In this document: in pieces, positions 22,306 to 64,000 of the stretch
Layout of the letters: each line of letters opens with the position of its first letter
Position numbering within the stretch: the stretch's first letter is position 1
Origin: Escherichia coli
GTDB taxonomy: Bacteria; Pseudomonadota; Gammaproteobacteria; Enterobacterales; Enterobacteriaceae
Reading direction: 5' to 3' (one strand)
DNA: 64,000 bases
NCBI RefSeq assembly: GCF_046105845.1
Contig: NZ_CP151004.1
Position numbers and translations under genes: made by a program
Notes under the pieces: generated by a model
Databases searched by the model: none
The model's input: only the letters and a program-made list of their open reading frames with translations
What the model was told of the DNA's origin: nothing

Positions 22306-22607
22306 CTGTTGATATCCCCCCCTCGAAAAAGAGAGAAAATAAAACTGTGTCCAATATTACTCTACCACTCCAGACCGAAGCATCGGTGGGATTAGCAGGA
22401 CGACTGGTACAGAAGGATGGTATAGCGTCATTTGTCGGGCATTCCATTGCCATAATAATGACAATTTTGAATCAATAGACATGCTTCTTGATCATGTCTT
22501 AAAAATTAGACCATGAGCCTTACGAAGCATCATTTTTACTGACTGGTATTAACTTTGCTATCATATAAACTCTGTTCTTAAAAACGCGCCCAGAATTTAT
22601 ATGATTT

Positions 22608-22748
22608 TCATTGTTTTTCTGCCTGTAAAGAAATTTCTTTTTCAGTGCTGTCGATGGTTGAACCGACGGCAGTAATCGTTTTGGCGACGCTACTGAAGGA
22701 TATTAAAGACAGTGTAACCACAACAATTAAAGAATAGATAATATTCAT
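22608..22748 (-). CDS. small hydrophobic/secreted protein (46 aa)
   Basis: ATG at 22748 preceded by AGGAGA RBS; MNIIYSLIVVVTLSLISFSSVAKTITAVGSTIDSTEKEISLQAEKQ, an N-terminal hydrophobic helix then a polar tail. The ORF track gives a longer version from 22796. Confidence 0.4.
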   Translation of the reverse strand: MNIIYSLIVVVTLSLISFSSVAKTITAVGSTIDSTEKEISLQAEKQ

Positions 22749-22963
22749 GCTAATTCTCCTGACAATTGAGAGGATGAGTTTTATATACAAAGGCATTAAA
22801 TATGAGTCATGTTTACTCCCTGTGAAAATAATCTTACTGTAATTAAACCTTCATCTCCTTCGGAGTGAGCAATGCATAATATAATGCATCTTGCTATTCA
22901 AAACAGTGGATATAAATTTTCCTCGCGACCTATTTAATAAAACGTGAATATAAAAGTTAGTCT

Positions 22964-23515
22964 TCAGTTTGCAGATGCAGTAGGTCTGATGGTAATTTCG
23001 GTTGTATCAACTGTTTCGGGAGATTCAATAATATGCCTTACAGCACGGGCAATATCCGCGGGTTGAAGTGCAACAGAACGGTAGGCGTCCATTGACTTCA
23101 TGGTTTCCACATGGGTAATGGTTGAAGCCAGTTCACTTTCTACAACCCCAGGATTTACGCAGGTCACACGGATTTTCGAGCTTTCCTGCCGTAAGCCATC
23201 CGAAATAGCCCGTACTGCAAATTTTGATGCACAATAGACTGCGCCTGTGGGCACAACAGAAAGGACACCAATAGAACCAAGATTGATTATCTGACCGGAA
23301 CCCTGTGCTTCCATCACCGGAAGTACAGCGCCAATTCCCCAAAGTACGCCTTTGATATTCACGTCAATAGTGAGTTCCCATTCATCTTGTTTTCCTGCTG
23401 CAAGCGGTGAAAGCGGCATAACGCCCGCATTATTGATAAGAACATCAACTCGCCCCCAGCTATCCAGCGCTGCTTGCACGAAATCGGCCATGGACTGCCG
23501 GTCTGTGACATCCAA
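22964..23515 (-). pseudogene. short-chain dehydrogenase/reductase (SDR), N-terminally truncated
   Basis: 183-aa ORF has the SDR core (NNAG, catalytic Y...K in VYCASKFAV) but lacks the N-terminal TGxxxGxG NAD-binding segment; its 5' end abuts the integrase remnant. Confidence 0.7.
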
Positions 23516-23519
23516 CTTG

Positions 23520-23686
23520 CATTTTCAGAAATGGGAGGCTGGGAGTCTATCGAAATGGTTCGTCGATATGCTCACCTCGCGCCTAATCACCTTACCGAAC
23601 ACGCACGGCAAATAGACTCAGTCCTGAACCCATCGGTCCCAAATTTGTCCCAGTCAAAAAATAAGAAAGGTACTAATGATGTGTAA
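23520..23686 (+). pseudogene. tyrosine-recombinase (phage integrase) C-terminal remnant
   Basis: ...[28 protein letters not shown]... matches the conserved C-terminal tyrosine-recombinase block (catalytic Y in RYAHL) and ends 14 bp from the tRNA 3' end; no upstream integrase body. 5' boundary approximate. Confidence 0.6.
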
Positions 23687-23700
23687 CTTATTGATTTAAA

Positions 23701-23776
23701 TGGTGCCGATAATAGGAGTCGAACCTACGACCTTCGCATTACGAATGCGCTGCTCTACCAACTGAGCTATATCGGC
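23701..23776 (-). tRNA. thrW: tRNA-Thr (anticodon CGU)
   Basis: The reverse complement reads GCCGATATAGCTCAGTTGGTAGAGCAGCGCATTCGTAATGCGAAGGTCGTAGGTTCGACTCCTATTATCGGCACCA: cloverleaf, CGT anticodon, CCA end; next to proA as in K-12. Confidence 0.9.
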
Positions 23777-23890: not shown

Positions 23891-25144
23891 TTACGCACGA
23901 ATGGTGTAATCACCAATGCCGATCCACTTGTAAGTGGTCAGTGCTTCCAGCCCCATTGGGCCACGCGCGTGGAGTTTTTGTGTGCTTACCGCCACTTCCG
24001 CACCCAGACCAAACTGGCCGCCGTCGGTAAAACGCGTAGAGGCGTTAACGTAAACAGCGGACGAATCCACTTCGTTAACAAAACGCTGGGCGTTGCGCAT
24101 ATCGCGGGTCAGGATCGCATCGGAGTGTTGTGTGCCGTGTTCACGAATATGGGTGATGGCATCGTCAAGATCGCTGACGATTTTGACGTTCAAATCTAAT
24201 GACAGAAACTCATCGTCATACTCTTCCGCTTTCACAGCCACCACCTTCGCGGGGCCTGTCTGCAACTGCGCCAGCGCAGCTGCATCTGCGTGTAATGTCA
24301 CGCCGCTTTCCGCCATTTGTTTGCTTAATGCGGGCAGGAAGCTGTCGGCGATGTTTTTATTCACCAGCAACGTTTCAACCGTATTACATGTGCTCGGACG
24401 CTGGGTTTTCGCGTTGACGATTACTTTCAGGGCTTCAGCGATCTCTGCACTTTCATCAACATAAATATGGCATACGCCTATACCACCTGTGATCACCGGG
24501 ATCGTCGACTGTTCGCGGCACAGTTTATGCAGGCCAGCGCCACCACGCGGGATCAGCATGTCGATGTATTTATCCATACGCAGCATTTCACTGACCAGCA
24601 CACGGTCAGGATTATCAATCGCCTGCACGGCACCCGCCGGTAAGCCGCAGGATTTCAGGGCGTCCTGAATCACCGCCACCGTTGCAGCGTTAGTGCGACA
24701 CGTTTCTTTGCCGCCGCGCAGGATCACCGCGTTACCTGTTTTCAGGCACAGCGAAGCGACATCTACCGTCACGTTCGGGCGCGCTTCATAAATCACGCCA
24801 ATCACCCCCAGCGGCACGCGACGGCGCTCCAGACGCAGACCACTGTCCAGTACGCCGCCATCGATTACCTGCCCCACCGGATCGGCGAGATTACACACCT
24901 GACGCACATCGTCGGCGATGTCTTTCAGCCGTGCGGGCGTCAGTGCCAGACGGTCAAGCATCGCTTCGCTAAGGCCATTGGCACGCGCGTCAGCAACATC
25001 CTGGGCGTTAGCGTTGAGGATGATTTCGCTTTGTGCTTCCAGTTCATCGGCGATTTTTTCCAGCACACGATTTTTTTCGCGGCTGGAGAGTTGCGCTAAT
25101 TTATACGAGGCTTGCTTTGCGGCAATGCCCATTTGTTCCAGCAT
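23891..25144 (-). CDS. proA: gamma-glutamyl phosphate reductase
   Basis: 417 aa, aldehyde-dehydrogenase-like; conserved proBA operon. Confidence 0.9.
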
Positions 25145-34765: not shown

Positions 34766-34801
34766 ATTTCAGGGTTTGAGAAATGCGTAAAGATTCAGCA
34801 T

Positions 34802-35500
34802 CTAGCGCGTTCGCTGCGAATGCACCTGCTGCTTATCCAGCTTTTGCACCAGCGGCTGCACCACTTTATCCCCATGCTGACCAAAGTATTGATACAGCGT
34901 ATCGGACGCACTTTTGGTCAGCACCATAATCTCAATGCGTCGGTTGCCCGCGCTTTGCGGATTTTTCGCGTCCAGCAGCATCTGGTCCGCCATCGCGCTC
35001 ACCTGCATCACTTTATCTTCCGGCATTCCGGCCTCTTCCAGCACCCGACGAGCCGAAAGCGCGCGATCGCCCGAAAGGTTCCAGTTGTTGTAGATATTGT
35101 TTTTGTAGGCCATCGCATCGGTATGCCCGGTAATAATAATTTTGTTATCGAGCGAGTCGAACACTGGCGCGAGCTCCACCAGCAAAGTTTTAAAGAACGG
35201 CATAATCTGTGCGCTGCCGCGTTCAAACATATTGCGGTTCTGGTCATCTTTAATCAGCACGCGCAGTCCCTGGGGAACAATCTCCATCTCCAGATTCGCT
35301 TCCATATGTGCATCACGGGCAATGGTGTTGATACTGGTCGCCAGCTCGCCAAGCTCAGTAGCGGATTTCTTCTTCAGCAGCGCCGTTTTCTCATTGACGT
35401 CACGCGCTTTTTTCTCCGTCTCTTCCGGCACCGCCACGGTGGCAGGTTTTGGCGGATGAGACGGGCTGATTTTATTTAACGGCGACAACCCGCCGCCATT
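34802..35500 (-). pseudogene. lafU: lateral-flagellar MotB-like protein remnant (Flag-2 scar)
   Basis: C-terminal OmpA/MotB-like region (...IITGHTDAMAYKNNIYNNWNLSGDRALSARRVLEEAGMPEDKV...NRRIEIMVL...) with no N-terminal TM anchor; the 5' part of the annotated ORF is merely antisense to the lfhA fragment. 5' boundary approximate. Confidence 0.6.
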
Positions 35501-35539
35501 GAAAATCGACTGCCCGTGCAGCGCGGCGATAATGCTTTC

Positions 35540-37271
35540 ACGCTCGGATTTACTGACGCTGTTGACAATCAACTTTATCGTCGTCACCAAAGGGGCCGAG
35601 CGTATTTCCGAGGTTTCTGCCCGCTTTACCTTAGACGCGATGCCCGGTAAACAGATGGCGATTGACGCCGATCTTAACGCTGGGTTGATCAACCAGGCGC
35701 AGGCGCAAACCCGGCGTAAAGATGTTGCCAGCGAGGCCGATTTCTACGGCGCGATGGACGGGGCATCGAAGTTTGTGCGCGGGGACGCCATCGCCGGGAT
35801 GATGATTCTGGCGATCAACCTGATCGGCGGCGTCTGTATCGGCATCTTCAAATACAACCTGAGCGCCGACGCCGCCTTCCAGCAGTATGTGCTGATGACC
35901 ATCGGCGACGGGCTGGTGGCGCAGATCCCGTCCCTGCTGCTCTCCACCGCGGCGGCAATTATCGTCACCCGCGTCAGCGACAATGGCGATATCGCCCATG
36001 ACGTGCGCCACCAGCTGCTGGCAAGCCCGTCGGTGCTCTACACCGCCACCGGGATCATGTTTGTGCTGGCGGTGGTGCCGGGGATGCCGCATCTGCCATT
36101 TTTGCTGTTCAGCGCCCTGCTGGGTTTTACCGGCTGGCGGATGAGCAAACGCCCGCAGGCGGCGGAGGCGGAGGAGAAAAGCCTCGAAACGCTGACCCGC
36201 ACCATCACCGAAACCAGCGAGCAACAGGTCAGTTGGGAGACTATTCCGCTGATCGAACCCATCAGTTTAAGCCTCGGTTACAAACTGGTGGCGCTGGTCG
36301 ATAAAGCGCAGGGTAACCCACTCACCCAGCGTATTCGCGGCGTGCGGCAAGTGATATCCGACGGCAACGGCGTGCTGCTGCCGGAGATCCGTATTCGGGA
36401 AAACTTCCGCCTCAAGCCCAACCAGTACGCCATATTCATCAACGGCATTAAGGCCGATGAAGCGGATATTCCGGCGGATAAACTGATGGCCCTGCCCTCC
36501 AGCGAAACCTACGGCGAGATTGACGGCGTGCTGGGGAACGACCCGGCGTACGGGATGCCGGTCACCTGGATTCAGCCTGCGCAGAAAGCGAAGGCGCTGA
36601 ATATGGGGTATCAGGTGATCGACAGCGCCAGCGTGATTGCCACCCATGTGAACAAGATTGTCCGCAGCTATATTCCTGATTTGTTTAACTATGACGATAT
36701 TACTCAGCTGCATAACCGTTTGTCGTCGATGGCACCGCGACTGGCGGAAGATTTGAGCGCGGCGCTCAATTACAGCCAGTTGCTGAAAGTGTACCGGGCG
36801 CTACTGACTGAAGGCGTTTCCCTACGCGATATCGTCACCATCGCCACCGTGCTGGTCGCCAGTAGCACAGTGACCAAAGATCATATTCTGCTGGCAGCTG
36901 ATGTGCGCCTGGCGCTACGGCGCAGCATTACCCATCCGCTCGTTCGCAAGCAGGAGCTGACGGTGTATACGCTGAATAATGAGCTGGAAAATCTGCTGAC
37001 CAACGTGGTGAATCAGGCGCAACAGGCCGGCAAAGTGATGCTCGACAGCGTGCCGGTGGACCCGAATATGCTTAACCAGTTCCAGAGTACGATGCCACAG
37101 GTGAAGGAGCAGATGAAAGCGGCGGGGAAAGACCCGGTGCTGCTGGTGCCGCCGCAACTGCGTCCATTGCTGGCGCGCTATGCAAGGTTGTTTGCGCCGG
37201 GGCTGCATGTGCTGTCGTATAACGAAGTGCCGGATGAGCTGGAGTTGAAGATTATGGGGGCGCTGAGTTGA
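35540..37271 (+). pseudogene. lfhA: FlhA-family export-gate protein, N-terminally truncated (Flag-2 scar)
   Basis: Reading frame carries FlhA motifs (VVTKGAERISEVSARFTLDAMPGKQMAIDADLNAG) but starts inside the membrane domain with no proper N-terminus or RBS; overlaps the lafU remnant. 5' boundary approximate. Confidence 0.65.
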
Positions 37272-44335: not shown

Positions 44336-45106
44336 GTGCCTGGTTTGAAGATTACGCTTTTACAGCAACCACTGGTGTGGATGGATGGTCCTGCCAACCT
44401 GCGTCATTTTGATCGTCAACTGGAAGGCATTACCGGGCGCGATGTGATCGTTCTACCGGAGATGTTTACCAGCGGCTTTGCCATGGAAGCGGCAGCTGCG
44501 TCGCTAGCACAAGATGACGTAGTGAACTGGATGACAGCCAAAGCGCAGCAGTGCAATGCGCTGATTGCAGGCAGTGTTGCATTACAAACGGAGTCTGGTT
44601 CGGTTAACCGCTTTTTGCTGGTTGAGCCGGGCGGCACGGTACATTTTTATGATAAGCGTCATCTGTTCCGCATGGCAGATGAGCATCTGCATTATAAAGC
44701 GGGCAATGCGCGAGTGATTGTGGAATGGCGCGGCTGGCGTATTTTGCCGCTGGTGTGCTACGACTTACGTTTTCCGGTGTGGTCGCGCAATCTCAACGAT
44801 TACGACCTCGCCCTGTACGTCGCCAACTGGCCTGCTCCGCGCTCTCTGCACTGGCAGGCATTGCTGACGGCCCGCGCGATTGAGAATCAAGCGTATGTGG
44901 CGGGATGCAATCGCGTCGGCAGCGATGGCAACGGCTGCCATTATCGCGGTGACAGCCGGGTGATTAATCCACAGGGCGAGATTATCGCCACCGCCGACGC
45001 GCATCAGGCAACGCGCATTGATGCGGAGCTGTCGATGGTGGCGTTGCGGGAGTATAGAGAAAAGTTTCCGGCATGGCGGGATGCGGATGAGTTTAGGTTG
45101 TGGTGA
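44336..45106 (+). CDS. yafV: omega-amidase (nitrilase-superfamily C-N hydrolase)
   Basis: Start set at GTG giving MPGLKITLLQQ... (256 aa); nitrilase-family E-K-C triad context (VCYDLRFP). Confidence 0.85.
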   Translation: MPGLKITLLQQPLVWMDGPANLRHFDRQLEGITGRDVIVLPEMFTSGFAMEAAAASLAQDDVVNWMTAKAQQCNALIAGSVALQTESGSVNRFLLVEPGGTVHFYDKRHLFRMADEHLHYKAGNARVIVEWRGWRILPLVCYDLRFPVWSRNLNDYDLALYVANWPAPRSLHWQALLTARAIENQAYVAGCNRVGSDGNGCHYRGDSRVINPQGEIIATADAHQATRIDAELSMVALREYREKFPAWRDADEFRLW

Positions 45107-45219
45107 GTGGGTGTTGTGTTTAGGGCCGGGGAGAGTCGGGGTATGACTACGAAAGCCCCTAACTTAAACACGATATTACGCCAGAAGTCACCATTTCCAA
45201 AACACAACGCCGTTGTACC

Positions 45220-45390
45220 GTGGGATATCTGCCCAACAGCAGCGACACGCCGGTGATCAAAATCAGCGCCAAATGGCTGAGAGAAGCGGGATTTGAGATC
45301 GGCACGGGCGTTACCGTGAAGATCCCGGAAGGTTGCCTGATCCTGCTTGCGGATAACAACGAAGTACAGGAACTGAGGAAGGAACTTTAT
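45220..45390 (+). pseudogene. SymE-like (AbrB-fold type I toxin family) gene fragment
   Basis: From a GTG start, ...TPVIKISAKWLREAGFEIGTGVTVKIPEGCLILLA... closely resembles the SymE core (KGQWLEAAGF.TGT.V.VKV.EGCIVL). The frame then continues for ~100 codons antisense to the convergent MucR-like gene, which I regard as non-coding read-through. 3' boundary approximate. Confidence 0.4.
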
Positions 45391-45758
45391 AAGGTTAAAC
45401 AGGCTGTCTTCAATATAGAACCGGAGCGATTACGCCAGTCAGGATCTGACTTTAGTTGCCTTCTCTTTATTCTCATCATGGCTATTTGTTCTGCGGGATC
45501 AAGCTTTCCCTTTGCTATTCTCGCCTTCATATATTCAATTTGTTTCTCCAGATATGAAATCCCTGCCAGTGCGATGTGCTTCGGTATGTTCCATTTTTCA
45601 CGATATTCGTCAGCGCGTATTCCATGCACAAACCAGATATGGCGCGGTAAAAAAATGAGCAACTTGCCACACTCCAGACAGGGTATTTTTTCCCGCTTAT
45701 GATATGCCAGAACCTCTTCACGCGTTTCGAATGGCCTGTTCCTCTCTTTTTTGTACAC
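45387..45758 (-). CDS. Ros/MucR-family zinc-finger transcriptional regulator
   Basis: 123 aa with the Ros/MucR signature IPCLECGKLLIFLPRHIWFVHGIRADEYREKWNIP (C-x2-C ... H-x4-H followed by EYREKW.LP). Confidence 0.7.
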   Translation of the reverse strand: MYKKERNRPFETREEVLAYHKREKIPCLECGKLLIFLPRHIWFVHGIRADEYREKWNIPKHIALAGISYLEKQIEYMKARIAKGKLDPAEQIAMMRIKRRQLKSDPDWRNRSGSILKTACLTL

Positions 45759-45822
45759 AAAGACTCCTTTTAAAAAATGGCAAGGTCACATATCCCTTAT
45801 TGGTACATAAATCCCCCGACGT

Positions 45823-47199
45823 TTACTGACTTTGTTCCACCTTCGTATCCAGTAAAATTACATAGCGATTCAGCAACTGATTTAACCGGGTATCTATCTG
45901 CGTCAACAGCGTCGGCGAAACCTCTCCGGTCTGTTTTTGCTCTTCCAGTTGCCGAAGCAGTTCTTCCAGCGGCGGCTCCTTTAACGACTGCCGGATGCCG
46001 TACACCGCCGTTTTTAGTTCCGAGCCGGTCAGATATCTCCCCTTACGCTCATCCAGTGCATCCAGCTGCGCCGACAGGCGCTGTAGCTGGCTTTGCGCCT
46101 GTGCGTAGCCATTCAATGCCTCAGCAGACATGGCGCTCAGCTCCCGCTGCTTACGCCACTGCGCGTTCAGCGCCCTGACCTGAGGATTATCCGGCCACAG
46201 GGCATCAAGCTGGCGTAGCTGGCGATATCCCTGCTCCAGCGGCCAGCGGGCAGGCAATTTGTTTAACTGCTCCAGCTGCATCTGACTTGCCGCAATTGTT
46301 CTGTCCTGAGCCAGCAGCGCCTTATCCTTTACATCCAGCTTTGCCAGTTCGCCGCTCTCCAGCGACTGCGGCAACGGCATGACAGACAGTTGTATTCGCT
46401 GGATTAGCGCGTCCGGCTGATTAAGCTGCGACCAGCCCCATAATCCTGTTCCGCCGAGACAGGCCATCACAACCATTCCGGCCATAAATATCGGCCATGC
46501 CCGCTGCCGGGAGATTTCAGGGGATGGCACGGATGGACTGGCATCCTTATCGTTTTGCTGAGCGGGTCTGGTTGCAAAAACCGGCTGTGGACTTTCTTCT
46601 GACTTTTTCGGTTGCTTCATTTCCTTGCGGGGTAATTCAGGGGGAGTGATAGTGGTTTCCGCTCCCTGTGGTGCCAGCCGCTCCAGACGTAGCGCCGCAT
46701 TACGAAACTGCCCGGCCAGCACATCCAGTTTCGTCATATGCCACAGTTCACACTGTTGCAGCGTGGTTTCGATGGCGGAAAGATGCTGTACACAACGGTA
46801 AATCTGCGGCAGATCCTGATACTGAATATCCAGCGTTCTCAGTGCCTGCTGCATTTTTTCTGTGACCCAGCTGAGCAGTGATATTCTGGAATGTACCTGT
46901 ACCGGCCAGAAGTCGGCCCATCGCTGGAGCAGTATGTCCAGTGAACCGAGTCCGTCTGCCATCCCTGCCAGCCCCTGCCGTCTGGTTATCGCCAGTACGT
47001 AACAGACCAGCGTCTGTAATTCCACGCCATTTTGCCGGAACAGCGCGAGGCTGAGTTTTTCCACCTGACGCCAGTCCACATCCGGTCGGGCCGGGTGAGT
47101 CAGTTTACTCATTTCAGCCTGCAGTTCACCGGATTCCTTATAAGTACAGGGATCGCCGCCCATGACGAACTGGCTGATAAAATTCGCGTTACTTGCCAT
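45823..47199 (-). CDS. TssA-family (ImpA_N domain) membrane-anchored T6SS accessory protein, TagA/VasL-like
   Basis: 458 aa; N-terminal ImpA_N-like region (GGDPCTYKESGELQAEMSKL...), one central TM helix (AWPIFMAGMVVMACLGGTGLWGW), Q/L-rich coiled-coil C-terminus; last gene of the T6SS block. Confidence 0.6.
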   Translation of the reverse strand: MASNANFISQFVMGGDPCTYKESGELQAEMSKLTHPARPDVDWRQVEKLSLALFRQNGVELQTLVCYVLAITRRQGLAGMADGLGSLDILLQRWADFWPVQVHSRISLLSWVTEKMQQALRTLDIQYQDLPQIYRCVQHLSAIETTLQQCELWHMTKLDVLAGQFRNAALRLERLAPQGAETTITPPELPRKEMKQPKKSEESPQPVFATRPAQQNDKDASPSVPSPEISRQRAWPIFMAGMVVMACLGGTGLWGWSQLNQPDALIQRIQLSVMPLPQSLESGELAKLDVKDKALLAQDRTIAASQMQLEQLNKLPARWPLEQGYRQLRQLDALWPDNPQVRALNAQWRKQRELSAMSAEALNGYAQAQSQLQRLSAQLDALDERKGRYLTGSELKTAVYGIRQSLKEPPLEELLRQLEEQKQTGEVSPTLLTQIDTRLNQLLNRYVILLDTKVEQSQ

Positions 47200-47627
47200 C
47201 AGTACGCCCGCTCCTGCTGTTTGAGATGACGCAGAACAATTCGTCCTTCCGGAGAAAATACGCCATCAAAGCGTATCCAGCCGGTATCGGGAAGCTGCGC
47301 GTGGATCAGGTAATTAAGATGCCCCGGACGGGGCTGGGGGAGTAACTCCACCTGTATCTGACTCAGGCGTGGTTCATAACGCAGCAGCGTTTCTTCAATC
47401 TGACGCATCAGGCCATGAATACCCGCAGCCATCCCCTGATGGATCAGACTGAGATCCGGCAGACCGTAATCCGGCAAATGCGCCAGCGTGCCTGCCCGAC
47501 AGTTGATAATGCGTTGCATATTGTCCATCACGGAAAGGATAAGCTGATCCCGCTCGCTGACCTGTTCCAGTGGTAACTCGCCGCTGAAACTGAACGTCAG
47601 CATTTCATATAAGGAAGGTGTCGACAT
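47199..47627 (-). CDS. tssE: T6SS baseplate protein TssE (gp25-like)
   Basis: 142 aa, size and position between tssJ and the TagA-like gene with a 1-nt overlap; family call by context. Confidence 0.7.
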   Translation of the reverse strand: MSTPSLYEMLTFSFSGELPLEQVSERDQLILSVMDNMQRIINCRAGTLAHLPDYGLPDLSLIHQGMAAGIHGLMRQIEETLLRYEPRLSQIQVELLPQPRPGHLNYLIHAQLPDTGWIRFDGVFSPEGRIVLRHLKQQERAY

Positions 47628-47630
47628 CGG

Positions 47631-48167
47631 TTATTTATCCTTGAGAGGCAGCAGTCGCAGGTCGCTTCTCATCAGTTCAATCGAGCGCGGCTTGTCGGCC
47701 TCCAGTTCGTCCCTTTTGATCACCAGACGCCAGCTGTCGCTTTTTTCATCAGGGTGATAAAACTGCCCGATAATGGCGACAAACTGCGTCTCTTTATCCA
47801 GCGGCTCATTCAGGGATGCCGTGCCTTCCGGTTTTACCCAGACGGTGTGTTTTGCCAGTACGTCCTTCTCCAGCGTCTTCTCTTCCTGCATAAACAGGGT
47901 GTCATAATCCGCCTTGTCAAAATCTTCGCGGGTTTTCAGTTGCCAGACATGCACCATCGTGGAAAGCGGCGTATCTTCCGCATCCGTATTCAGGGCACTT
48001 CGGGAGAAGAAATCGAGATGCAGTATTTTGATTTGCTTGTAGAAAACGGCTGAGGCCACGCTTTTCGATTCATCCACCACTTTCTGAATCAGCCCGCAGC
48101 CACTCAGAACAACCGTCAGCATCGCCATACAGAGCAGCGCCGGACGTTTAAAACGAATAGGAAACAT
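47631..48167 (-). CDS. tssJ: T6SS outer-membrane lipoprotein TssJ
   Basis: 178 aa; lipoprotein signal with lipobox LSGC (MFPIRFKRPALLCMAMLTVVLSGC). Confidence 0.7.
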   Translation of the reverse strand: MFPIRFKRPALLCMAMLTVVLSGCGLIQKVVDESKSVASAVFYKQIKILHLDFFSRSALNTDAEDTPLSTMVHVWQLKTREDFDKADYDTLFMQEEKTLEKDVLAKHTVWVKPEGTASLNEPLDKETQFVAIIGQFYHPDEKSDSWRLVIKRDELEADKPRSIELMRSDLRLLPLKDK

Positions 48168-49236
48168 GAGTCATACACTCCCTGTTACGAATGGATAAAG
48201 CGGGTATTAATCCCTGATAACGCCCCAGACTGACCGTCACTGTTCCGGTCGCGGGCGCGGCAAAGGAGGCGCGAAGGATGCCGGTACGGCTAATCTGTAC
48301 GCGCTGTTTTCCCAGCCGGGCAGCAGGCAACAGGCTGACGGGCAGTGTCAGTTGCAGACGGGCCTGACAGCGCCAGCCCAGATAAACGCGCAGCAGTACC
48401 AGCAAATCGCTGTGCAGCTGTCCGCCAGGCAGCCAGCCACGCGCTTCTGCGGCATCTTCGGTATACAGTTTCAGCAGCAACTGGCTGTTGACGTCGGTGC
48501 CGGTACGCCCCAGCAGCGTTCGCGTTTTCAGGCTGATGCGTGAATTTTTTGACAGACCCGCAGGGGCCGGGAGAATAACAGGCTGCGGATCATGAGGCAC
48601 CACCGTCGCTTTCGTCAGCGGGGCAAGCAGTCCCACCAGTGCCGTAACGCCTTCCGCCGTGCGCGTCGGCAGGCGCATCACGCTGAGCAGGGCCAGAAAA
48701 CGGGATACCGGCGTGGCGATATGGTTCTCGCTGCCGGGAATACCCAGCCCGATGAGTCCCAGCAGACAACGGGAAATGTCATCCACAGCACCTGCTTCAA
48801 ACGACGCCGGGTAGTTATATTTGCGCCAGATGCGGTAATACTGGGTGATAAAGCGGTGGTTAAAAATATCGAGAAACGCCATCACTGCGTCATGTCCGTC
48901 ATGACGCTGGGTAATGTAGTCCAGATAGGCGGTTGGCAGCGGCGAATCCACGCCGTACAGGCCGAAAAAGGTGGTGCGCACCGTGGGTGGTGCGTCGGGA
49001 TTGTCCACGTCACGTTCAACGTTCTTTAACTCGCTGACCGGAAAGCCCATTCCGGGATGGGGACGAAAGCGCACCGCATCGGCGGCGGGGCTGTCGGTAC
49101 TGCCCAGCGGCGCTTTCTGTTGGCTCTGTTCCAGCAACTGGCAAAAACGGTAAAAATTGATCCGCGCAATATCCGGGGCCAGCCGGTCGGTCAGCCCGGT
49201 ACGCGCTGGCTGTGATGCTCTGTCCATTGCAGGCAC
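48148..49236 (-). CDS. tssG: T6SS baseplate protein TssG
   Basis: 362 aa; N-terminal F.F.Q.LE-type motif (INFYRFCQLLEQ); follows tssF with overlap. Confidence 0.75.
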   Translation of the reverse strand: MPAMDRASQPARTGLTDRLAPDIARINFYRFCQLLEQSQQKAPLGSTDSPAADAVRFRPHPGMGFPVSELKNVERDVDNPDAPPTVRTTFFGLYGVDSPLPTAYLDYITQRHDGHDAVMAFLDIFNHRFITQYYRIWRKYNYPASFEAGAVDDISRCLLGLIGLGIPGSENHIATPVSRFLALLSVMRLPTRTAEGVTALVGLLAPLTKATVVPHDPQPVILPAPAGLSKNSRISLKTRTLLGRTGTDVNSQLLLKLYTEDAAEARGWLPGGQLHSDLLVLLRVYLGWRCQARLQLTLPVSLLPAARLGKQRVQISRTGILRASFAAPATGTVTVSLGRYQGLIPALSIRNRECMTHVSYSF

Positions 49237-50951
49237 TTTCCTGTGGGTTGCAGAATTAAGGTCAGTTGAGTGAATAAGTGGATATCGGCATACAGTGCGA
49301 AGAAGCGGTGCAGCAGTTCACCAAACAGTGTGATATCACCTTCTCCGGCAAAGCCGTTACTGTCCAGCGTTACCTGAATATCCACGCCACGCAGCAGAAA
49401 GCCTCTTTCAAAACGCTGTATCAGGCTGTGCTGAACGTCGACAATCGCCTCCAGACGACGGCGGTTCATCTCGCTTTCGGTCCAGTCGTACAACGCCAGC
49501 GTGCCGCGCACAATTTCGGCGTTATCCATCATCGATAAAAAGTTAGAACCAAGGTGGCTGAGCACCCGCCAGTGGAAGCGGTCACGCGCCGGGGGATAGC
49601 AGGGCTGCGTCGGGGCGCACAGGTTGCGCACCCGCAGGACGTTCTGTGAGGCGTGGACTGGCGTATCGAGTAGCGTGCTCTGTAAAGCTTTACGGGGAAG
49701 CTGCCCGTTAGTGCCGGTCAGACTTAAGGACAGAGTTTCATCCTCCAGCATCCGGTCAGAATCAAACGCATCGCCGCCCAGAATCAGCCAGGTATCATGC
49801 AGGCCGGAAGGGCCGCGCTTAACCCGCGTATGGTAATAACGTTCCGGCGCATCGTGGCGCAGCATCCCGCCCCGGTGACGAAAGCTGGAGAATGGCACAT
49901 ACGCCTGACTGCCGGTATGGCGCGAAGAAATAATGTTGTCGACGGAATAAATCTCGGTATGCCCGTCCTGAATTCGCATCGGGCGCAGCAGAAATTCGTT
50001 TTCCAGTGGCGAAAGGTGTAACGGATCGGCTTCCAGCGGGAACAGGTTGATAACCGGCACGCAGTGCAGGCGGAGATTGTCGGTATTAAACGGCAAATCA
50101 TGAGGCCAGCTTTCCGCCAGCACCACGTCAATCTCAAAGCCGGTTATCCCTTCCGGCCAGATGACGTTCTCCAGCCCGTTGAGTGCCACAAACATAAACT
50201 TCTCGCGGAAGGTGAAATACTCCAGCAGCAACTGGTAGCCGCTGAACGCCGACTCGCCTTTTGGCCAGAGCCTGTCATTATCCTCAAAGCCCAACGGGGA
50301 AAAGTGTGCGTCAAGCGTCCGGCGATCCTGCCCCGGCAGACGCAACCAGAACTGCTGCGTACCAAGCGTTAAAGCCCGGTGCAGCGCACAGGCCACCGGA
50401 CTGTCGGCATTGAGATAGAGCGGCAGGCGGGATAAATCGATCTGTGACCAGTCACCGACCAGCGGGCCGCATTCAAAGCGCAGACGAATAACCGAACGTC
50501 CGTCCGGTTCATATTGCAATGACACGTCCGGCAACGCCAGCGGATGCAGCGTGATATCCCGCGTGGCGCTGTAGAAACAGCGGGTTCTGCGCTCGCCAAC
50601 AGGGCGCGACAATACCTGAAAATCGCTCAGCGTTTCGCTCTGCTTCATCTGCCGGTGATCTGTCGACAGTTCAACCACGGAAAGTGACGGGATAGTTCGC
50701 AGGTAGTGAGGCCACAGCAGGCTGACCAGCCCTTCAGTCAGCTCCGGCAGATCGTCGTCCAGCTTCTCGCGCAGGCGGCCCATTAAAAAAGCAAAGCCTT
50801 CGAACAGGCGTTCCACATAGGGATCGCGTGCGCCGGGTTTATCAAGATTGAGCATCGCGGCGCGGTCGGGGTAAGCCTGCGCAAATTCTTTCCCCGCTTC
50901 ACGCAGGTAGCGCATTTCGGCTTCGTAGTAGCGTTGGGTTAAGTCGTCCAT
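49191..50951 (-). CDS. tssF: T6SS baseplate protein TssF
   Basis: About 590 aa; start placed at the ATG of MDDLTQRYYEAEMRYL (the ORF track begins at an upstream TTG, 50990); tssF-tssG pairing. Confidence 0.75.
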   Translation of the reverse strand: MDDLTQRYYEAEMRYLREAGKEFAQAYPDRAAMLNLDKPGARDPYVERLFEGFAFLMGRLREKLDDDLPELTEGLVSLLWPHYLRTIPSLSVVELSTDHRQMKQSETLSDFQVLSRPVGERRTRCFYSATRDITLHPLALPDVSLQYEPDGRSVIRLRFECGPLVGDWSQIDLSRLPLYLNADSPVACALHRALTLGTQQFWLRLPGQDRRTLDAHFSPLGFEDNDRLWPKGESAFSGYQLLLEYFTFREKFMFVALNGLENVIWPEGITGFEIDVVLAESWPHDLPFNTDNLRLHCVPVINLFPLEADPLHLSPLENEFLLRPMRIQDGHTEIYSVDNIISSRHTGSQAYVPFSSFRHRGGMLRHDAPERYYHTRVKRGPSGLHDTWLILGGDAFDSDRMLEDETLSLSLTGTNGQLPRKALQSTLLDTPVHASQNVLRVRNLCAPTQPCYPPARDRFHWRVLSHLGSNFLSMMDNAEIVRGTLALYDWTESEMNRRRLEAIVDVQHSLIQRFERGFLLRGVDIQVTLDSNGFAGEGDITLFGELLHRFFALYADIHLFTQLTLILQPTGKCLQWTEHHSQRVPG

Positions 50952-51026
50952 CGGAGGATTTATCTTTCCTTTTATTGAAATTAATACCAACGAGTAGTGA
51001 GATTAGAATTTTTTATTTTCAGAATC

Positions 51027-51431
51027 CTAAGGACATATAGATGGATCATTTATTTCAAAAGAAAAATCGGACTCCATACTAGATGAGGATTTTTTCAATA
51101 AAGAGGAGATATGATATCCAGATAAAGTTTTAGAATTGTTACCATCAGATATCAAAATACTAAGTTCAGAAACAATATTTACAGGGTTTTTATTAAAAAC
51201 ATCTGACTCTCTACCTGTGTAAATAAAGTATACAATTGGCTTCCGCTCTCCGATATCAAGATGAAAATTATCTCTTACTTTACCATCATAATGTGTTGAA
51301 TTATTGACCGTCGAAATGTTAATAGATACTTTGCATGTATTTACCATGACAATGGAACAAGAATAGAATGGTTGAGATAAACATCCAGCACACAGCGTAC
51401 ATAATAAAAAAAAGAATATTAATCTAGTCAT
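51027..51431 (-). CDS. lipoprotein-like secreted protein; candidate immunity protein for the upstream PAAR toxin
   Basis: 134 aa; N-terminal signal peptide with Cys cluster (MTRLIFFFLLCTLCAGC...); start overlaps the stop of the PAAR-HExxH gene by 8 nt; AT-rich. Confidence 0.4.
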   Translation of the reverse strand: MTRLIFFFLLCTLCAGCLSQPFYSCSIVMVNTCKVSINISTVNNSTHYDGKVRDNFHLDIGERKPIVYFIYTGRESDVFNKNPVNIVSELSILISDGNNSKTLSGYHISSLLKKSSSSMESDFSFEINDPSICP

Positions 51432-52863
51432 GAAATTTCACCCGAGATAACCATATCATTGCACATACATCGTTTTCGACAGCAACCGACCTTGCATATA
51501 GATCACTGGTGTATATATGCCCATTATAATATTTCATTAAATCTATCTCGCCAGTTCCTGGATAAACTGAATGAGGCAGTGCATATTGAGGTGGTACAAG
51601 ATTAGAGGTCCCTTTATGCTCCCATGAATACGTATTCCCACCGTAACTTTTTAATATCATATGACCAGTCTCATGGGCTACATCAAGTTTAAATTCTAAT
51701 CCAGCCTTAAAAACAGGATCCGCGCCTTTCTGATACCCACGGCCATATTCATAATACCCCCTATTGAAATAAATGTTCATACGTCCCATAAAAGCACTAG
51801 ACCTGACGCTTTCTAGATCTTGCTCCTCAATTAAATCAAAAGAATCCATGGCTGGATCAATATTTATTGATACAGAGATATTTACATTATATTTACCGTG
51901 CGGAGTAGTAATATTATTGCCAATTCCGGGATTCCTCATTCCATTTCGTGCCCAATAATACTCTATTCCATCCTTGGCAAGTTGCTTTAATTTTTCAAAC
52001 CCTACAGGTGCAATACGATCATCTTTATGACTCACACCATCATCTTCAAATTCTACTCGCCAACTGACATCAACTATTTTTTGATTCTTGTCTACTTTTA
52101 CATCAATCCAATCTTCCTCATTCGCAGAAGTTTTCAATGGATAATCAACTTTTATCATCATATCACCACATAAAGCAATCAGTCTTACGAGTAGTGATTT
52201 GCTTTTTAGCTTAGTTGTATCCAGTATGTCTTGATTACTGTAGCCATCCCATTGCCAGGCATGCTCTCCCTTATCAAAATATTTACCGGTCTGCTGTTCA
52301 CTATAAATCACTTCATTACCATCAAGCACTTCCAGAGAAAGCGCTTCAGCCTCATCGCCTTTATTTGTGATGGTAAAATCTATTTTTTCTGTATTCTTCG
52401 TACTACCACCGCTAATCATTTCTTTATAATCAGGTATATTCAATGGCGTCAGTATCTTATTACCTGATAATTTAATTCTGTAATCCAGTTTTACATCATC
52501 TGAGGATGAATCAGAACCAGAAGTCAGATCCTTTTTCGCCGACTGCGCATGTTGTTCCGCTTCACTTCCCCCGTCATCCGTCTCATACACATCATCCATC
52601 ATTGACGCAATAAATCGCGCCTTACACGGGCAACTGCTCTGACTGTCCAGCGATCCCGCCATCAGCCTGCCGTGAATATCCGTTTCCGGCACGCCGCCGA
52701 CGATAATAAACATCCCCGAATGTTTACCGCAGGTCACTCTGTCCATATCCCGCGCCTGCGGGATACCCATGATCGTATGGTCGTCCGCCCCTTCAATAAT
52801 TTTGCCGCCGCAGGTGGTCTTATCGCCCCTGACCAGAAAATAGCCTCTTCCCATCGTCATCAC
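51424..52863 (-). CDS. PAAR-domain protein with C-terminal HExxH (putative zinc metallopeptidase-like) toxin domain
   Basis: 479 aa. The N-terminal ~90 aa fit the PAAR pattern (RGDKTTCGGKIIEGADDHTIMGIPQARDMDRVTCGKHSGMFIIVGG); then an acidic/Ser-rich linker; the C-terminal region contains HETGH. Start overlaps the tssA stop. Confidence 0.65.
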   Translation of the reverse strand: MMTMGRGYFLVRGDKTTCGGKIIEGADDHTIMGIPQARDMDRVTCGKHSGMFIIVGGVPETDIHGRLMAGSLDSQSSCPCKARFIASMMDDVYETDDGGSEAEQHAQSAKKDLTSGSDSSSDDVKLDYRIKLSGNKILTPLNIPDYKEMISGGSTKNTEKIDFTITNKGDEAEALSLEVLDGNEVIYSEQQTGKYFDKGEHAWQWDGYSNQDILDTTKLKSKSLLVRLIALCGDMMIKVDYPLKTSANEEDWIDVKVDKNQKIVDVSWRVEFEDDGVSHKDDRIAPVGFEKLKQLAKDGIEYYWARNGMRNPGIGNNITTPHGKYNVNISVSINIDPAMDSFDLIEEQDLESVRSSAFMGRMNIYFNRGYYEYGRGYQKGADPVFKAGLEFKLDVAHETGHMILKSYGGNTYSWEHKGTSNLVPPQYALPHSVYPGTGEIDLMKYYNGHIYTSDLYARSVAVENDVCAMIWLSRVKFHD

Positions 52864-54497
52864 TCCTTATGCTGCGTATCACACAGTACCGCTGCCCGTA
52901 CCGGATCGATTGTCACCAGCGTTCCCAGCAGGATTTCCATTTTTCGGTTCAGCAGGGCTTTATCCGCATAGCGGTGCGCCCGCAGGCGCAGCAGTTTCAG
53001 TTGCCGGGCTTTTACCTCAAACAGCAGTTCCGGCTCCCACTGCGTCAGCGTTATTCCCTGTGCGGCGGTATCCAGTTCTTCCAGCAGCAGGAGTGCCATC
53101 TCGTTTTTACCGTACTGTTCCGCCACCCGCGCCATCAGCAGCCGCAATAACAGGCGCTGTCGTGCCGTGGTGATGCCCGGACGGGTCTGTATCCAGCCCA
53201 GCGCCGCTTCCACGCCCTGACTGTCTGCCATCTCCAGTGCTTCCGGCTCCAGCGCCAGTACGTCATTTGTGGCGTCGTCTGTCGGTACAGCGGCTTTCCC
53301 CGCAAGCCATGCGCCGTCTTCCCGCATCATGACCTGCTGCGCTATCCAGTTGCGCGTCACCTCATCGGCGAACGGTGTGCCGTCGTTCCATGCCAGATTT
53401 TCCAGCCCCGGCAGGCGTTCCAGCAGTAACGCCAAGTCCTGACGGATAACGGCTGTCCACCTGTCCCACGGTACGCCCGCCTTAGTCAGCGCCTGATGCA
53501 GATACCACTGAATGTCCAGCCAGAAATGGCTGACGCCGGTGCTGAACATCAGGTCGGCCTGCTCCAGCAGTTCCGTCCAGTTCTGCTGGGCATACAGCCG
53601 CTTAAGCTGATTGCGTGACTCGGTGCGCGGCGGGGCCAGCCGGGTTTTGCCGTCCACATCCGGCGGCAGTTCATGCACCGTGTCCCAGCGCAGGGTTTTC
53701 ATCAGCCGGTGCGCCGAAAGCCAGCCCTGCGGCTGTTCATTCAGATAACGGGCCAGCACTTTCGCCTGGTCGAGCAGGTCACGCCCGGAGGTGATGGTCT
53801 GTACCTGTGGCGCATCCACCGGGGATGACGGTGCAGGAACGCTGCTGCTGTTTTGCGGCACCACTGCGTTCATCCCTCCCGACTGCGCCAGACGCGATTC
53901 CAGCGCGTTAATCAGCGGCATCAGGGAGGGGGAATGCTGGTCTTCGGGCCATGCAGTGAAGGAAACCGTCAACTGACTGAGGGCAGCAACAATGTTCGCA
54001 AAATCCTCTTTTGCCACTTCCGGGTAGCGGGCAAGGCTGTCGAGCATCTTTTCCCCCGCCAGCCACTCCAGCGCCATTTTCCGGCTGGCCGGTCGCGAGG
54101 GCAGCAGTTGCGTACCGAAGCGTTCCACCAGTCCGGTCAGCAGCGCCAGTCCTTCCGCCAGTCCGCGCTCACCGTCGCGGTGCAGTCGCGCCCAGATGTA
54201 GTAAGTGGCGATGCGCACGTCTTTTGCCTGCGTCAGCAGCAGGGATTCGGCAAGCTGGCAGATGAGGTCCGTATCCGCGCCGGAAAGTTTGTTCATCTCG
54301 TCGCGGATACGCAGAAAATCGTCGTGGTAGCCGGGGTCTTCCCCGACCGGCGTATCTGTCGTCACCGGCAGCAGCCATGTCTGCCACAGTGCCGCCTGTG
54401 CTCGCGCCACATCCAGTGCATCCCGGTCGGCAAAACAGCTACGGGTCAGCTTTTGCAACAGTTCACTCATCGGCGTCTTCCCCGTATTCTTCCGCAT
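52860..54497 (-). CDS. tssA: T6SS protein TssA
   Basis: 545 aa; ImpA_N signature (PVGEDPGYHDDFLRIRDEMNKL); immediately downstream of tssM with overlap. Confidence 0.75.
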   Translation of the reverse strand: MRKNTGKTPMSELLQKLTRSCFADRDALDVARAQAALWQTWLLPVTTDTPVGEDPGYHDDFLRIRDEMNKLSGADTDLICQLAESLLLTQAKDVRIATYYIWARLHRDGERGLAEGLALLTGLVERFGTQLLPSRPASRKMALEWLAGEKMLDSLARYPEVAKEDFANIVAALSQLTVSFTAWPEDQHSPSLMPLINALESRLAQSGGMNAVVPQNSSSVPAPSSPVDAPQVQTITSGRDLLDQAKVLARYLNEQPQGWLSAHRLMKTLRWDTVHELPPDVDGKTRLAPPRTESRNQLKRLYAQQNWTELLEQADLMFSTGVSHFWLDIQWYLHQALTKAGVPWDRWTAVIRQDLALLLERLPGLENLAWNDGTPFADEVTRNWIAQQVMMREDGAWLAGKAAVPTDDATNDVLALEPEALEMADSQGVEAALGWIQTRPGITTARQRLLLRLLMARVAEQYGKNEMALLLLEELDTAAQGITLTQWEPELLFEVKARQLKLLRLRAHRYADKALLNRKMEILLGTLVTIDPVRAAVLCDTQHKE

Positions 54498-57400
54498 CCT
54501 TCATACTCCTGCCGGTCAGAAATACCTGTCCCGGCAGGCGGAAATTTTTCAGCTCCAGCAGCGCCATCGGCCCTTTGCCCTGTTCAACCCGCAGCAGGTA
54601 ATTCAGCGGCAGGCCGTCCTGCGCTTTCCACACCACTTTAAAGGTACTGCTGTCCACCGGTGTCACCTGCGCCTGTTCCAGCAGACGAATTAGGCTCCAG
54701 CTTCCCCGGTAATCCGCCAGTATACGTTCCATCGCCTGCGTGCTGGTCCAGCTCAGCGATGCGCCGGGTTGCCACTGTTCATCCGGCCAGTTAAAACGCT
54801 GCCAGCGTTCTTTCTGGTTGAAATACTCCAGTTCCTGCCCGTCAATCACCAGATGTGTTTTCATCACGTCTCGGGCCGGTTTTGCCCGCAGTTCAAAATG
54901 TATTCCGGCATCGCCGCTGGCAAAGGCGGTGTCAGCCACGTCACGCAGGCGGTTCAGGGCGCGAATAAAGTCCGGGTTGACCGTCAGCCCCTGCGTGTTC
55001 ATGGCGTCCGCCACCCAGTAGCGGCCTTCACGTTTCAGAACGCCGGAAAGGTTGGCGGCAATAAACTGGTTGATGCGCCCGTCATCGCGCAGATACTGCG
55101 CCAGCAGGGGGAGGGAAGCATCGTTCTGTGAGGCTTTGAACGGGTAGCGACCAGCGAAGTCCTGATTCCAGTGGCTGACAATCGCCCGCTGCCACTGGCG
55201 GTTCAGGCTGTCCGCCGCAGGCGTCAGCACCTGCCGCCACGACTGCTCCACCGGGCGGACGAACAGCGCCTGACCGAAGCCACTCCATTCCTCGCCCAGA
55301 CTGGCGGCGATTAACCGTCCGTAGTCGCGGGTGTCGGTGAGGTCAACGGTTTTGCCCTGCAAGACTGTCTGCGCCAGTTGTTGGGTCATCTCCTGTGGGT
55401 CGGGGGCGTTGGTCACCTGTTGCAGTTTGAGGCGCACGCGGGTGACGCGGGTCAGATACGTTTGCAGGCTGAGTTGCGTATCGCCACCACCGCCTCCGGC
55501 CTTATCGCCCAGCAAACGCAGCAGCGGCGCGAAGGTTTTATCCAGTGGCCCGACAGGCACGTCGTCTTCACGGGATTGCTGCGGCGTTTTCTCCTTGCCG
55601 TTAAACAGTTCCTGTGCCGATTTCGCCAGCGAGTCCGACAGGCCACGGTTTTCCCTGCCAGCCGCCGCCTGCCAGGCGAGGGTGTCCGTCAGCGCAATCA
55701 GCGGCGACTGACGGGCATCGGCCATCAGCGTCAGCTGGTCGAGAATGCCGGAGAGTGAGTCTTCCTTTTTCCAGCGAATGCTGTTGAGAAACGCCAGCCA
55801 GCTTCCGGCAAAGTCGGTAAAGTAGCGTGAGGTGAGACGGTTACGCAGCGTATCCGGCGAGATATCCGCAGAGGTATCCTGCTGGCGGTCGCTGAGTACC
55901 CAGTCGATTTCCTCGCGCCGCGCCGTCACCACCTGCTCGATGGCTTCCCTGACCTGTCCTTCCCACGCCTGACGGGTGAACATCCCCGGCACCGTCTGTT
56001 CCGTACTGAAAAGAGATTCGGTGAGCGTATCCCCGGTCATGTCCGCCAGCGTCATATCGGCGTAGTTGCGGGACACCTGTTGCAGTACGTTCTGGTAGAG
56101 GGTGTTTTCGGCATTGCGCACACCAATCTGGCGCAGCAGGATTTTACGCACCGCGCCGGTCAGTTCCGGTGGCGGCGAGGTTTTCCACTGCGGGTGTTCC
56201 GGCAGGTTCGCCATCCAGAAGGTCAGCAGTGACGGCAACACGCTCTGACGCACACCTTCCGGGATATTTTCATAGCGCAGGCCGTCCGCCATCAGCGTGG
56301 TACTGAAAAAGGCAGCGTCGGCCTTTTCCGGGCGGGAAGTCATCAGCAATGCCTTAAGCTGCTTATAGCGTTGTTCACCAGTGGCGGTACGCTGAGGACT
56401 GTTGGGCGGCAGCGCGACAAAGGCGTTCAGTTGCTGTTGCAGATGGTCAACGGCCACGTCGCGCACCAGCCGGTTTGCCGCCTGTGCATAGCCAGGAAAG
56501 GCGGCGGCGAGCAGTTGCTGGTTACGTTCAAGGCCAAAACGCTGATACCACGGCGCACCTTCGCGGATACGATATTGCAGGCGCTCCAGTTCGCCCTGCA
56601 GGGTATGCAGCGCCACCAGTTGTTCAGACAGCGGCAGCCGGGTATCAAGCGCTCGTGCAGTCTGGATGCTGGTTTCCTGAACAAGCGCGCGGTTGGCGAA
56701 GAAAGAGGTCGTCATTCCGGCCCCCCATATCGCCAGCATGCAGATGCCGCTTATCAGCGCGGCGCGTAGCCACGGAAAGCCCACTGTACGCCCCCGTGCG
56801 TTATCGCCGGTCACGCCCGCCCAGACCGGTGACGGCAGCCACGCATGAGGTGCGGCCTCCGGTACGGCGGTAAGCGGCGGGCTGAACATCAGACCGCGCA
56901 GGCGCAGGGAAGAGAATGCGCCGCCTGCCAGCAGCGGTTTCAGGACGGTCTGCCAGTGAGCGATACCCCGCTCTGCAAGGGTATGAGCCAGACGCAGCAG
57001 GAAATCATGGCGGTTATCGGTCAGCAGTTGCGACATGCCCTGTTCCGTCAGCGGCAGGGTTTGTGCTTCCAGCATTACAGCCAGTTGTTCCGGGGGACAG
57101 CGTTCCGGCAGCAGGCAGCCGACGCTTTGCAGAGGGCGTCCGGTCTGATAATCACCGTTGTCACAGACCTGCCACAAATAGAGTGGGGCCTGAAAACCGA
57201 GTCGCTTACTGCCGTTTATCAGTTCGCGCCAGCCTTTGTCGAGTTGCGCTGTCTGGCGGCTCTGTTCTTCTGTCAGCGCCCAGATGATGCCATCCAGCGG
57301 ACGGCTGCGACGCAGTTTTTTTAAGGCGGTCAGCAGTGTGACATCAGGCTCCGCTGATGGCCTGCCGCCATATATCAGCACCGTGTGGTCGCCCTCCAGC

Positions 57401-59066: not shown

Positions 59067-59126
59067 AAAAATAATCCGCTATTAAATTAGGTATATGATG
59101 TGGTTATATCCCGCTTTTCGATTAAA

Positions 59127-59504
59127 TTACTCTGATACATTTATGGTATATATTTTGCCAAACCGTCCTCTGCCACCACCACCTATGGAGAATCCTCCGA
59201 TTTCAATGACTATCGCCCCTTTTACAACAGGGATACCCTGAACAATAAGGCAACTATTTTGGTCTGGCTCAAAAACATCAATAGTCAAACCCGAATTCTC
59301 AGGCCTGAAATCTTTCAATGGAAAAAAAGGTACAGGCCCAACTCCTCCTGAAATCTCGATTTTTGCATAGTAACTCTGACCTAATTTTGCATCAGGCAAG
59401 GAGTCTGGGGAAACAGTAGTTTTTGGGATGATTAGCATATGTAAACATCCAGTTAGTGATATTGATAATGAACATATGAGTAAAAATTGAATTGTCTTTT
59501 TCAT
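59127..59504 (-). CDS. small lipoprotein; candidate immunity protein
   Basis: 125 aa; lipoprotein signal MKKTIQFLLICSLSISLTGC; ATGA start/stop overlap with the upstream gene; Gly-rich C-terminus; AT-rich. Confidence 0.45.
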   Translation of the reverse strand: MKKTIQFLLICSLSISLTGCLHMLIIPKTTVSPDSLPDAKLGQSYYAKIEISGGVGPVPFFPLKDFRPENSGLTIDVFEPDQNSCLIVQGIPVVKGAIVIEIGGFSIGGGGRGRFGKIYTINVSE

Positions 59505-60361: not shown

Positions 60362-60448
60362 AATAACCTCCTTCAATAAAAAATCAAAAAAAAACACAAG
60401 TTACATTTTACTCTAAATATAACTTGATTGATTAACAATTAAAGAAGA

Positions 60449-61252: not shown

Positions 61253-61258
61253 TCCCTG

Positions 61259-63760: not shown

Positions 63761-63804
63761 TATTTTCCTGTATAGATAGAAATATTTTCGTCATTAAAAA
63801 TAAA

Positions 63805-64000
63805 TCAACAATGAAACTCAATGAACTCTCGCCATTGTGGTGTCGCATTATTTTTCACTAAGAAATCGTTTCTTTCATCAGGTGATAGACTGTGCCAGAA
63901 CGGAGACCAAATACTCTCCCACCAGAACTCAACTTCTCCTTGTAAGCTACCGAAAGTATCGGGTTCCAACTCAGGAAAAACATCCCATGGCACAGGTTCT
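63805..64000 (-). CDS. hypothetical Trp-rich protein, probably 5'-truncated by the window end
   Basis: Minus-strand frame is open to the window edge; C-terminal sequence ...FWWESIWSPFWHSLSPDERNDFLVKNNATPQWREFIEFHC; no recognisable family. Confidence 0.3.
   Translation of the reverse strand, partial: EPVPWDVFPELEPDTFGSLQGEVEFWWESIWSPFWHSLSPDERNDFLVKNNATPQWREFIEFHC

Follow-up and report, generated by a model that had tools for sequence, protein, structure and literature searches.

The thrW locus of the stretch of Escherichia coli DNA analysed here (the window, 64,000 nucleotides of contig NZ_CP151004.1) very probably carries a fixed deletion scar, built in steps at a tRNA hot spot, at which the last 54 codons of a tyrosine recombinase abut an SDR-family oxidoreductase gene that lacks its 5′ end. 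Judged from sequence comparison, the simplest history would be an ancient integration by a phage of the Sf/P22 integrase type, decay of the element to an integrase stub, and a deletion running from inside this stub into the SDR gene. Neither remnant would be expected to work, since the integrase is without five of its six catalytic residues and the SDR is without its cofactor-binding fold, start codon and promoter. On every inspected genome with the same junction, RefSeq lists the pseudogenes “SDR family oxidoreductase, missing N-terminus” and “integrase, missing N-terminus”. The scar is thus already annotated as two pseudogenes and, as a deletion at a site where phages are well known to integrate, it is ordinary.

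The thrW locus and its two gene remnants

The locus is the E. coli thrW locus. A tRNA-Thr is the sole tRNA that ARAGORN finds in the 64-kb window, and it is annotated upstream of proA in all related genomes. To the right of thrW lie proA (23891-25144, minus strand) and then proB, and to the left the pao operon, an MFS transporter, a hydrolase and a LysR regulator. The interval from the LysR gene to thrW holds a small ORF, a minus-strand frame of 183 codons (22964-23515) and a plus-strand frame ending at 23686. Among the tRNA integration sites of E. coli, thrW is one of the most frequently used (PMC7545054). The features that make up the scar are the following.

22964-23517, minus strand: SDR-family oxidoreductase pseudogene, residues 58-240 of 240 (BLASTP, Pfam PF00106)
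23516-23517, no strand: deletion junction, dinucleotide CT common to both parents, a microhomology (alignment with the intact SDR locus and a longer integrase remnant)
23518-23686, plus strand: integrase remnant, last 54 codons and stop of an Sf/P22-type tyrosine recombinase (BLASTP, blastn, annotation)
23687-23700, no strand: 14-bp phage-derived spacer from the int stop to the att core (alignment with SfII int-attP and a resident prophage)
23701-23746, no strand: 46-bp att core common to thrW and the attP of SfI, SfII, SfV, SfX and P22 (single copy in the window)
23701-23776, minus strand: thrW, intact tRNA-Thr with anticodon CGT/CGU (ARAGORN and Rfam RF00005, 71.8 bits)

The minus-strand frame matches residues 58-240 of the intact 240-residue SDR of O157:H7 (WP_000361969.1) at 178 of 183 positions (97%, BLASTP). 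It is homologous to PF00106 and keeps the YxxxK catalytic motif, as YCASK, and the profile is covered from position 56 to 191 only (E = 2e-37), against 1-191 in the intact protein. The intact N-terminus reads MDKVILITGASSGIGEGI, and the glycine-rich cofactor motif TGASSGIG (TGxxxGxG) occupies residues 8-15, within the 57 residues missing here. The fragment is accordingly devoid of the TGxxxGxG signature of a classical SDR, in agreement with a reading made from the window sequence alone (the sequence-only reading), according to which the gene had lost its NAD-binding N-terminus. The native Leu58 codon, TTG, opens the ORF in the window, and an in-frame TGA stands four codons upstream; the piece is therefore a fragment without start codon, promoter or Rossmann N-terminus. 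Nor is it a complete shorter gene in related strains, for the SDR is a gene of 240 codons in 389 other genomes, mostly O157:H7 and its relatives, which hold the 5′ end missing here, and it is a pseudogene wherever it is short. The frame remains open, with five amino-acid changes relative to the intact protein. This is mildly unexpected for an old pseudogene, but 183 codons can stay open by chance.

The small ORF beside the SDR fragment (22520-22798, minus strand) encodes 92 amino acids in six other genomes, with an N-terminus resembling a signal peptide. Pfam matched it to no family; our impression, which we take only as such, is of a likeness to the YhcN/DUF1471 proteins. In this window alone it is broken, through a TGA nonsense codon at 22610-22608 and the loss of one base near 22579 and of another near 22595, so that a second pseudogene adjoins the scar.

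The plus-strand frame 23516-23686 corresponds to residues 334-387 of the 387-residue SfII integrase, with 50 of 54 residues identical (93%; E = 9e-36, BLASTP), so that the earlier estimate of some 55 remaining codons, and the assignment of these to an integrase C-terminus, were well founded. At the DNA level (blastn) the identity of the remnant to the int 3′ end amounts to 97.1% for SfII and phi458, 96.5% for SfV, SfI and SfIV, and 78.5% for P22. The fragment belongs to the SfII/SfV/P22 type by homology, and a P4-type integrase was rejected on orientation as well as sequence, both being of the lambdoid/P22 type. The Pfam match, to PF00589, is weak: at 16.4 bits (E = 0.008) it falls short of the cut-off of 27.1, and it extends over profile positions 151-171 of 172 only. 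A total of 333 of the 387 residues are absent, and only 14% of the gene is left. The catalytic-Tyr motif is present, without the rest of the complete catalytic domain (~170 aa, R-K-H-R-H/W-Y) and without the N-terminal arm- and core-binding domains. The integrase piece is a remnant, a predicted non-functional member of the PF00589 family.

The position of this remnant is that of an integrase gene beside its att core. Its stop codon (23684-23686) is separated from the 3′ end of the tRNA, as the sequence-only reading had stated, by 14 bp (23687-23700). The homology to SfII attP covers this spacer and exactly 46 bases of the tRNA, where it ends at ...ACGAAT. The published 46-base core of SfI, SfII, SfV, SfX and P22, ATTCGTAATGCGAAGGTCGTAGGTTCGACTCCTATTATCGGCACCA, equals the reverse complement of 23701-23746 (PMC3636060). 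The 3′ end of int faces the 3′ end of the tRNA, a layout found also in the intact integrated lambdoid/P22-type prophage of strain TK3046. A naive attB that was never occupied was rejected, given that a phage int 3′ end and spacer flank the tRNA. A direct repeat of the thrW 3′ end further into the window, which the sequence-only reading had suggested seeking, is absent: with as many as 6 substitutions allowed, the 46-bp core occurs only once in the 64 kb, no 14-mer is shared, and an exact search with 12- to 20-mers returned only a chance 12-mer. There is, therefore, no attL/attR pair in the window. A search for the arm-type repeats of SfII attP gave only short, unconvincing matches.

The junction and the DNA that was lost

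The junction was placed by aligning the window with the intact SDR locus and with the longer integrase remnant of strain RIVM_C037794. At this point the window reads ...CATCCAACTTGCATTTTCAG..., the intact SDR reads ...CATCCAACTCCCGCGC... and the RIVM_C037794 remnant reads ...TTCTCTTCTTGCATTTTCAG.... The SDR parent is split at the join between ...CATCCAACT and CCCGCGC, and the integrase parent between ...TTCTCTTCT and TGCATTTTCAG. No IS element, terminal repeat or other repeat is found at the join. With a 2-bp microhomology, no IS and no second att copy in 64 kb, the join bears the marks of an apparent illegitimate deletion and not of Int/Xis excision.

The intact arrangement is represented by O157:H7 PV15-279 and by strain 2017-02-2CC, in which the order is paoD, MFS transporter, hydrolase, LysR, small ORF, SDR, a second, divergent LysR gene (LysR2), an island, an integrase or integrase remnant, thrW and proA. 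The island in these strains is P4-like, measures 13-16 kb and is situated between LysR2 and the integrase or its remnant. In K-12 the 3′ end of LysR2 lay originally ~160 bp from thrW: the distal att copy of the CP4-6 prophage is followed by ~20 bp, then by ~140 bp of LysR2 downstream flank, and then by the 3′ part of the LysR gene (yagP). The minimum loss in the window is thus ~1.3 kb, comprising 171 bp of SDR, the 98-bp intergenic region, the 900-bp LysR gene and ~140 bp of flank. Any element then present was lost as well, so that the total was possibly tens of kilobases.

The comparison of the locus across E. coli genomes, which the sequence-only reading had proposed, shows an identical junction in 19 of the 5,426 complete genomes. 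An assembly artefact or chance was rejected, because the junction is common to 19 independent complete assemblies. An exact scan of the GTDB species representatives with the 32-base junction gave no match, so that beyond the E. coli genomes the junction has not been encountered. Including that of the window, three junction haplotypes are present, which differ from one another by 16-23 substitutions per ~1 kb and yet have many states in common that set them apart from the two intact-SDR haplotypes used for comparison. The left flank of the window has its best matches (up to 99.4%) mostly in scar-bearing strains. That haplotypes diverged by ~2% share one junction fits a single deletion event, which may be old or may have been spread by homologous recombination.

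In five of the 19 scar genomes a newer element has been inserted at thrW, between scar and tRNA, which indicates that thrW is still usable as an attachment site. The scar has been displaced from thrW by an ICE-like element with its own integrase in 19KM1776, and by a CP4-6-like element in an O169:H41 strain. Where the displaced 49-bp piece of the thrW 3′ end meets the new element in 19KM1776 (locus L003, 9204-9315), RefSeq lists a 112-nt “tRNA-Ser”, which probably reflects a mis-annotation of the hybrid att site.

For the annotation of such loci, the consequence is that both pieces should be labelled pseudogenes, and little importance attaches to them beyond this; surveys of islands and prophages should count thrW here as unoccupied but scarred. 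The locus also illustrates the turnover of a tRNA hot spot, from integration to integrase stub, through deletions that consume the flank, to reuse of the tRNA by new elements.

History of the scar and competing explanations

The stepwise history would begin with a lambdoid phage of the SfII/SfV/P22 integrase type that integrated in the 46-bp core at the thrW 3′ end, an event that, on established knowledge together with the sequence found here, would have left the int 3′ end 14 bp from the reconstituted tRNA. As the distribution of alleles suggests, the element would then have decayed to a short int-3′ remnant that is now found in hundreds of genomes. In a third step, for which the junction is at hand and the mechanism is putative, illegitimate recombination at CT would have joined int, 54 codons from its end, to codon 58 of the SDR gene. 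The DNA lost in this step would have run from the SDR 5′ end over the 98-bp intergenic promoter region and the divergent LysR gene to ~140 bp of thrW flank, together with the distal att copy and whatever island DNA was present.

The intermediate stub is suggested by the bases next to the join. The match of full-length Sf-type integrases to the window begins only at 23528, with GAAATGGGAGG, and the 12 bases adjacent to the join (TGCATTTTCAGA) agree with a diverged allele whose upstream continuation is present in RIVM_C037794. A 121-bp probe of this breakpoint-proximal allele (CTTGCATTTTCAGAAATGG) is covered to at least 80% in 800 genomes, and full-length integrase genes matched only its last 38 bases. 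In a spread sample of the rows matching the allele, 12 of 12 were truncated “integrase” pseudogenes; the remnant-only status of the allele rests on these sampled annotation rows (12 of 800 genomes). Since the junction side matches an allele known from remnants in ~800 genomes, the last deletion probably began in an older remnant, cutting into an integrase that had already decayed. More decayed copies of int, each followed by a partial thrW copy, stand in E2348/69 and AR_451 at the far end of island arrays beside yagU.

Unlikely by comparison is a history without an older remnant stage, in which one large deletion removed a complete and recent SfII-like prophage (~40 kb) together with its flank. 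Such prophages, with full-length Sf-type integrases, do occupy thrW in many genomes (e.g. TK3046), and, apart from its first ~12 bases, the remnant matches full-length integrases at 97% identity. The 12 junction bases (the CTTGCATTTTCAG allele) and their continuation in RIVM_C037794 differ, however, from all full-length integrases sampled, and the allele ...GGTTCAGTCCAGTGTTTCTCTTCTTGCATTTTCAG... was seen in truncated copies only (800 genomes; 12 of 12 sampled rows). These differences favour the stepwise history, with its intermediate stub.

It is very unlikely that the deletion was an IS-mediated adjacent one, extending from an IS element in int to the SDR gene, with subsequent loss of the IS. 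IS3-family elements do truncate the thrW-proximal integrase in O157:H7 (a 504-bp remnant) and in GMF065 (674 bp), but the junction in the window is a plain 2-bp microhomology with no IS or terminal repeat, and in none of the 19 genomes was an IS seen separating the SDR piece from the int stub. IS-mediated adjacent deletions, moreover, normally leave the IS in place, which counts against this explanation.

Retention of the int 3′ end under selection, whether as a hybrid att arm, as a region for thrW 3′ processing or termination, or as a small ORF, is likewise given little credence. The segment, beside thrW or a displaced thrW copy, is matched in 2,328 of the 5,426 genomes (roughly 40%) and in many different island contexts, and by analogy with the attP of lambda and P22 one arm would overlap the int 3′ end; both points speak for a function. 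Against it, no terminator-like site, Rfam family or significant fold is associated with the segment: the chimeric 70-codon ORF at 23474-23686 has no promoter-like site on the plus strand nearby and no terminator-like site, Rfam assigned the remnant region to no family (matches below threshold were noise), and the predicted RNA fold downstream of thrW is not unusual (z = 0.39). Displaced copies, furthermore, gather stops and indels. Persistence is more simply explained if deletions that reach thrW or proA are counter-selected and every new Sf-type phage delivers the sequence again. One further idea, a speculation with a slim chance of proving right, is that the int-3′ segment may keep an attP arm and so make thrW a hybrid, attL-type site that biases the capture and stacking of Sf-type phages, integrase-less satellites and defence islands. 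The junction of SDR and int would then be a favoured, “cleared and re-armed” allele spread by homologous recombination, and not one inherited neutrally.

A clean Int/Xis excision that restored an empty attB, with the integrase-like stretch as original chromosome, would account for a nearly empty site and an intact thrW but can be dismissed almost entirely, as excision between attL and attR would remove int wholly and leave the SDR gene untouched, whereas here 169 bp with 97% identity to phage int remain along with the spacer and the neighbouring SDR gene is cut at non-att sequence. The sequence-only reading had described the scar as that of a lost or never-completed integration. Its first part holds insofar as an int remnant at the att position points to a lost element, with the amendment that chromosomal flank (the SDR 5′ end and the LysR gene) has gone too, so that the loss was not by excision. 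Its second part does not hold, because site-specific integration, being conservative, cannot produce a partial int joined to a chromosomal gene, as in the microhomology join found here.

Related loci and other remnants

The closest relatives of the remnant are the integrases of SfII, SfV, SfI and SfIV (the P22 Int family), which share with it the last 54 residues (93%; 97% in DNA), the 14-bp spacer and the orientation, along with an identical 46-bp core. The window differs from these phages in having no xis, gtr genes, prophage or second att copy, and in that the first ~12 bases of its int piece are of the diverged allele.

The ~34-kb CP4-6 prophage that the sequence-only reading placed at thrW in K-12 is indeed annotated there, at 262898-297205 (34,308 bp; NC_000913.3), and starts inside thrW. 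K-12 has the same tRNA gene and the same neighbourhood as the window, with proBA on one side and the pao operon on the other, and some of the same int-3′ spacer (~18 bp) survives at the distal att copy of CP4-6. The island DNA of K-12 amounts to 34.3 kb, with intF at its far end; in the window only 185 bp separate the SDR fragment from thrW, and these contain no element genes and thus constitute neither prophage nor island. The end points of the deletions also differ, as K-12 fuses the 3′ part of LysR2 to paoD whereas the window fuses the SDR gene to int. K-12 yagP is a truncated 3′ piece of the LysR gene that was lost in the window, and its alignment (locus L011, NC_000913.3, 38207-38792; compared with locus L009, 20907-21387) has this LysR 3′ part fused to the end of paoD. 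K-12 has, by this comparison, an apparent larger and independent deletion scar of its own in the neighbourhood, now displaced 34 kb by CP4-6. Strains differ in the scar that they carry in this neighbourhood, and these scars, that of K-12 among them, are independent.

The IS-truncated remnants of O157:H7 and GMF065 are of the same integrase type, occupy the same position beside thrW and reflect the same process of decay. They are longer than the remnant in the window (504 and 674 bp, respectively) and end at an IS3-family element, and their islands are still present. These islands comprise a P4-like satellite and an AbiE/Dnd defence island (O157:H7/GMF065), and the SDR gene of O157 is intact. 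To the left of thrW, other strains have cargo for defence against phages: RIVM_C037794 carries AbiEi/AbiEii and a 1,069-aa reverse transcriptase (locus L004, 791-6918), GMF065 carries AbiE and Dnd/Dpt phosphorothioation genes (locus L014, 10632-31726), and 19KM1776 carries its ICE-like element with a retron-type HNH gene (locus L003, 9341-17252). A truncated Sf/P22-type integrase lies directly beside thrW in both RIVM_C037794 and GMF065, while in 19KM1776 the scar has been pushed away from the tRNA.

Further into the window, at ~34800-37270, lie lafU and an N-terminally truncated FlhA-like ORF, which are a remnant of the Flag-2 lateral flagellar cluster according to the annotation of the matching stretch in strain 2017-02-2CC. 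This remnant is another deletion scar inside the same window. A type VI secretion cluster lies in the stretch from 45000 to 64000. No complete E. coli genome matches it at more than 96% identity, and only 247 of the 5,426 genomes cover at least 80% of it; it diverges more than the rest of the window, where the best matches are 97.8-99.4%.
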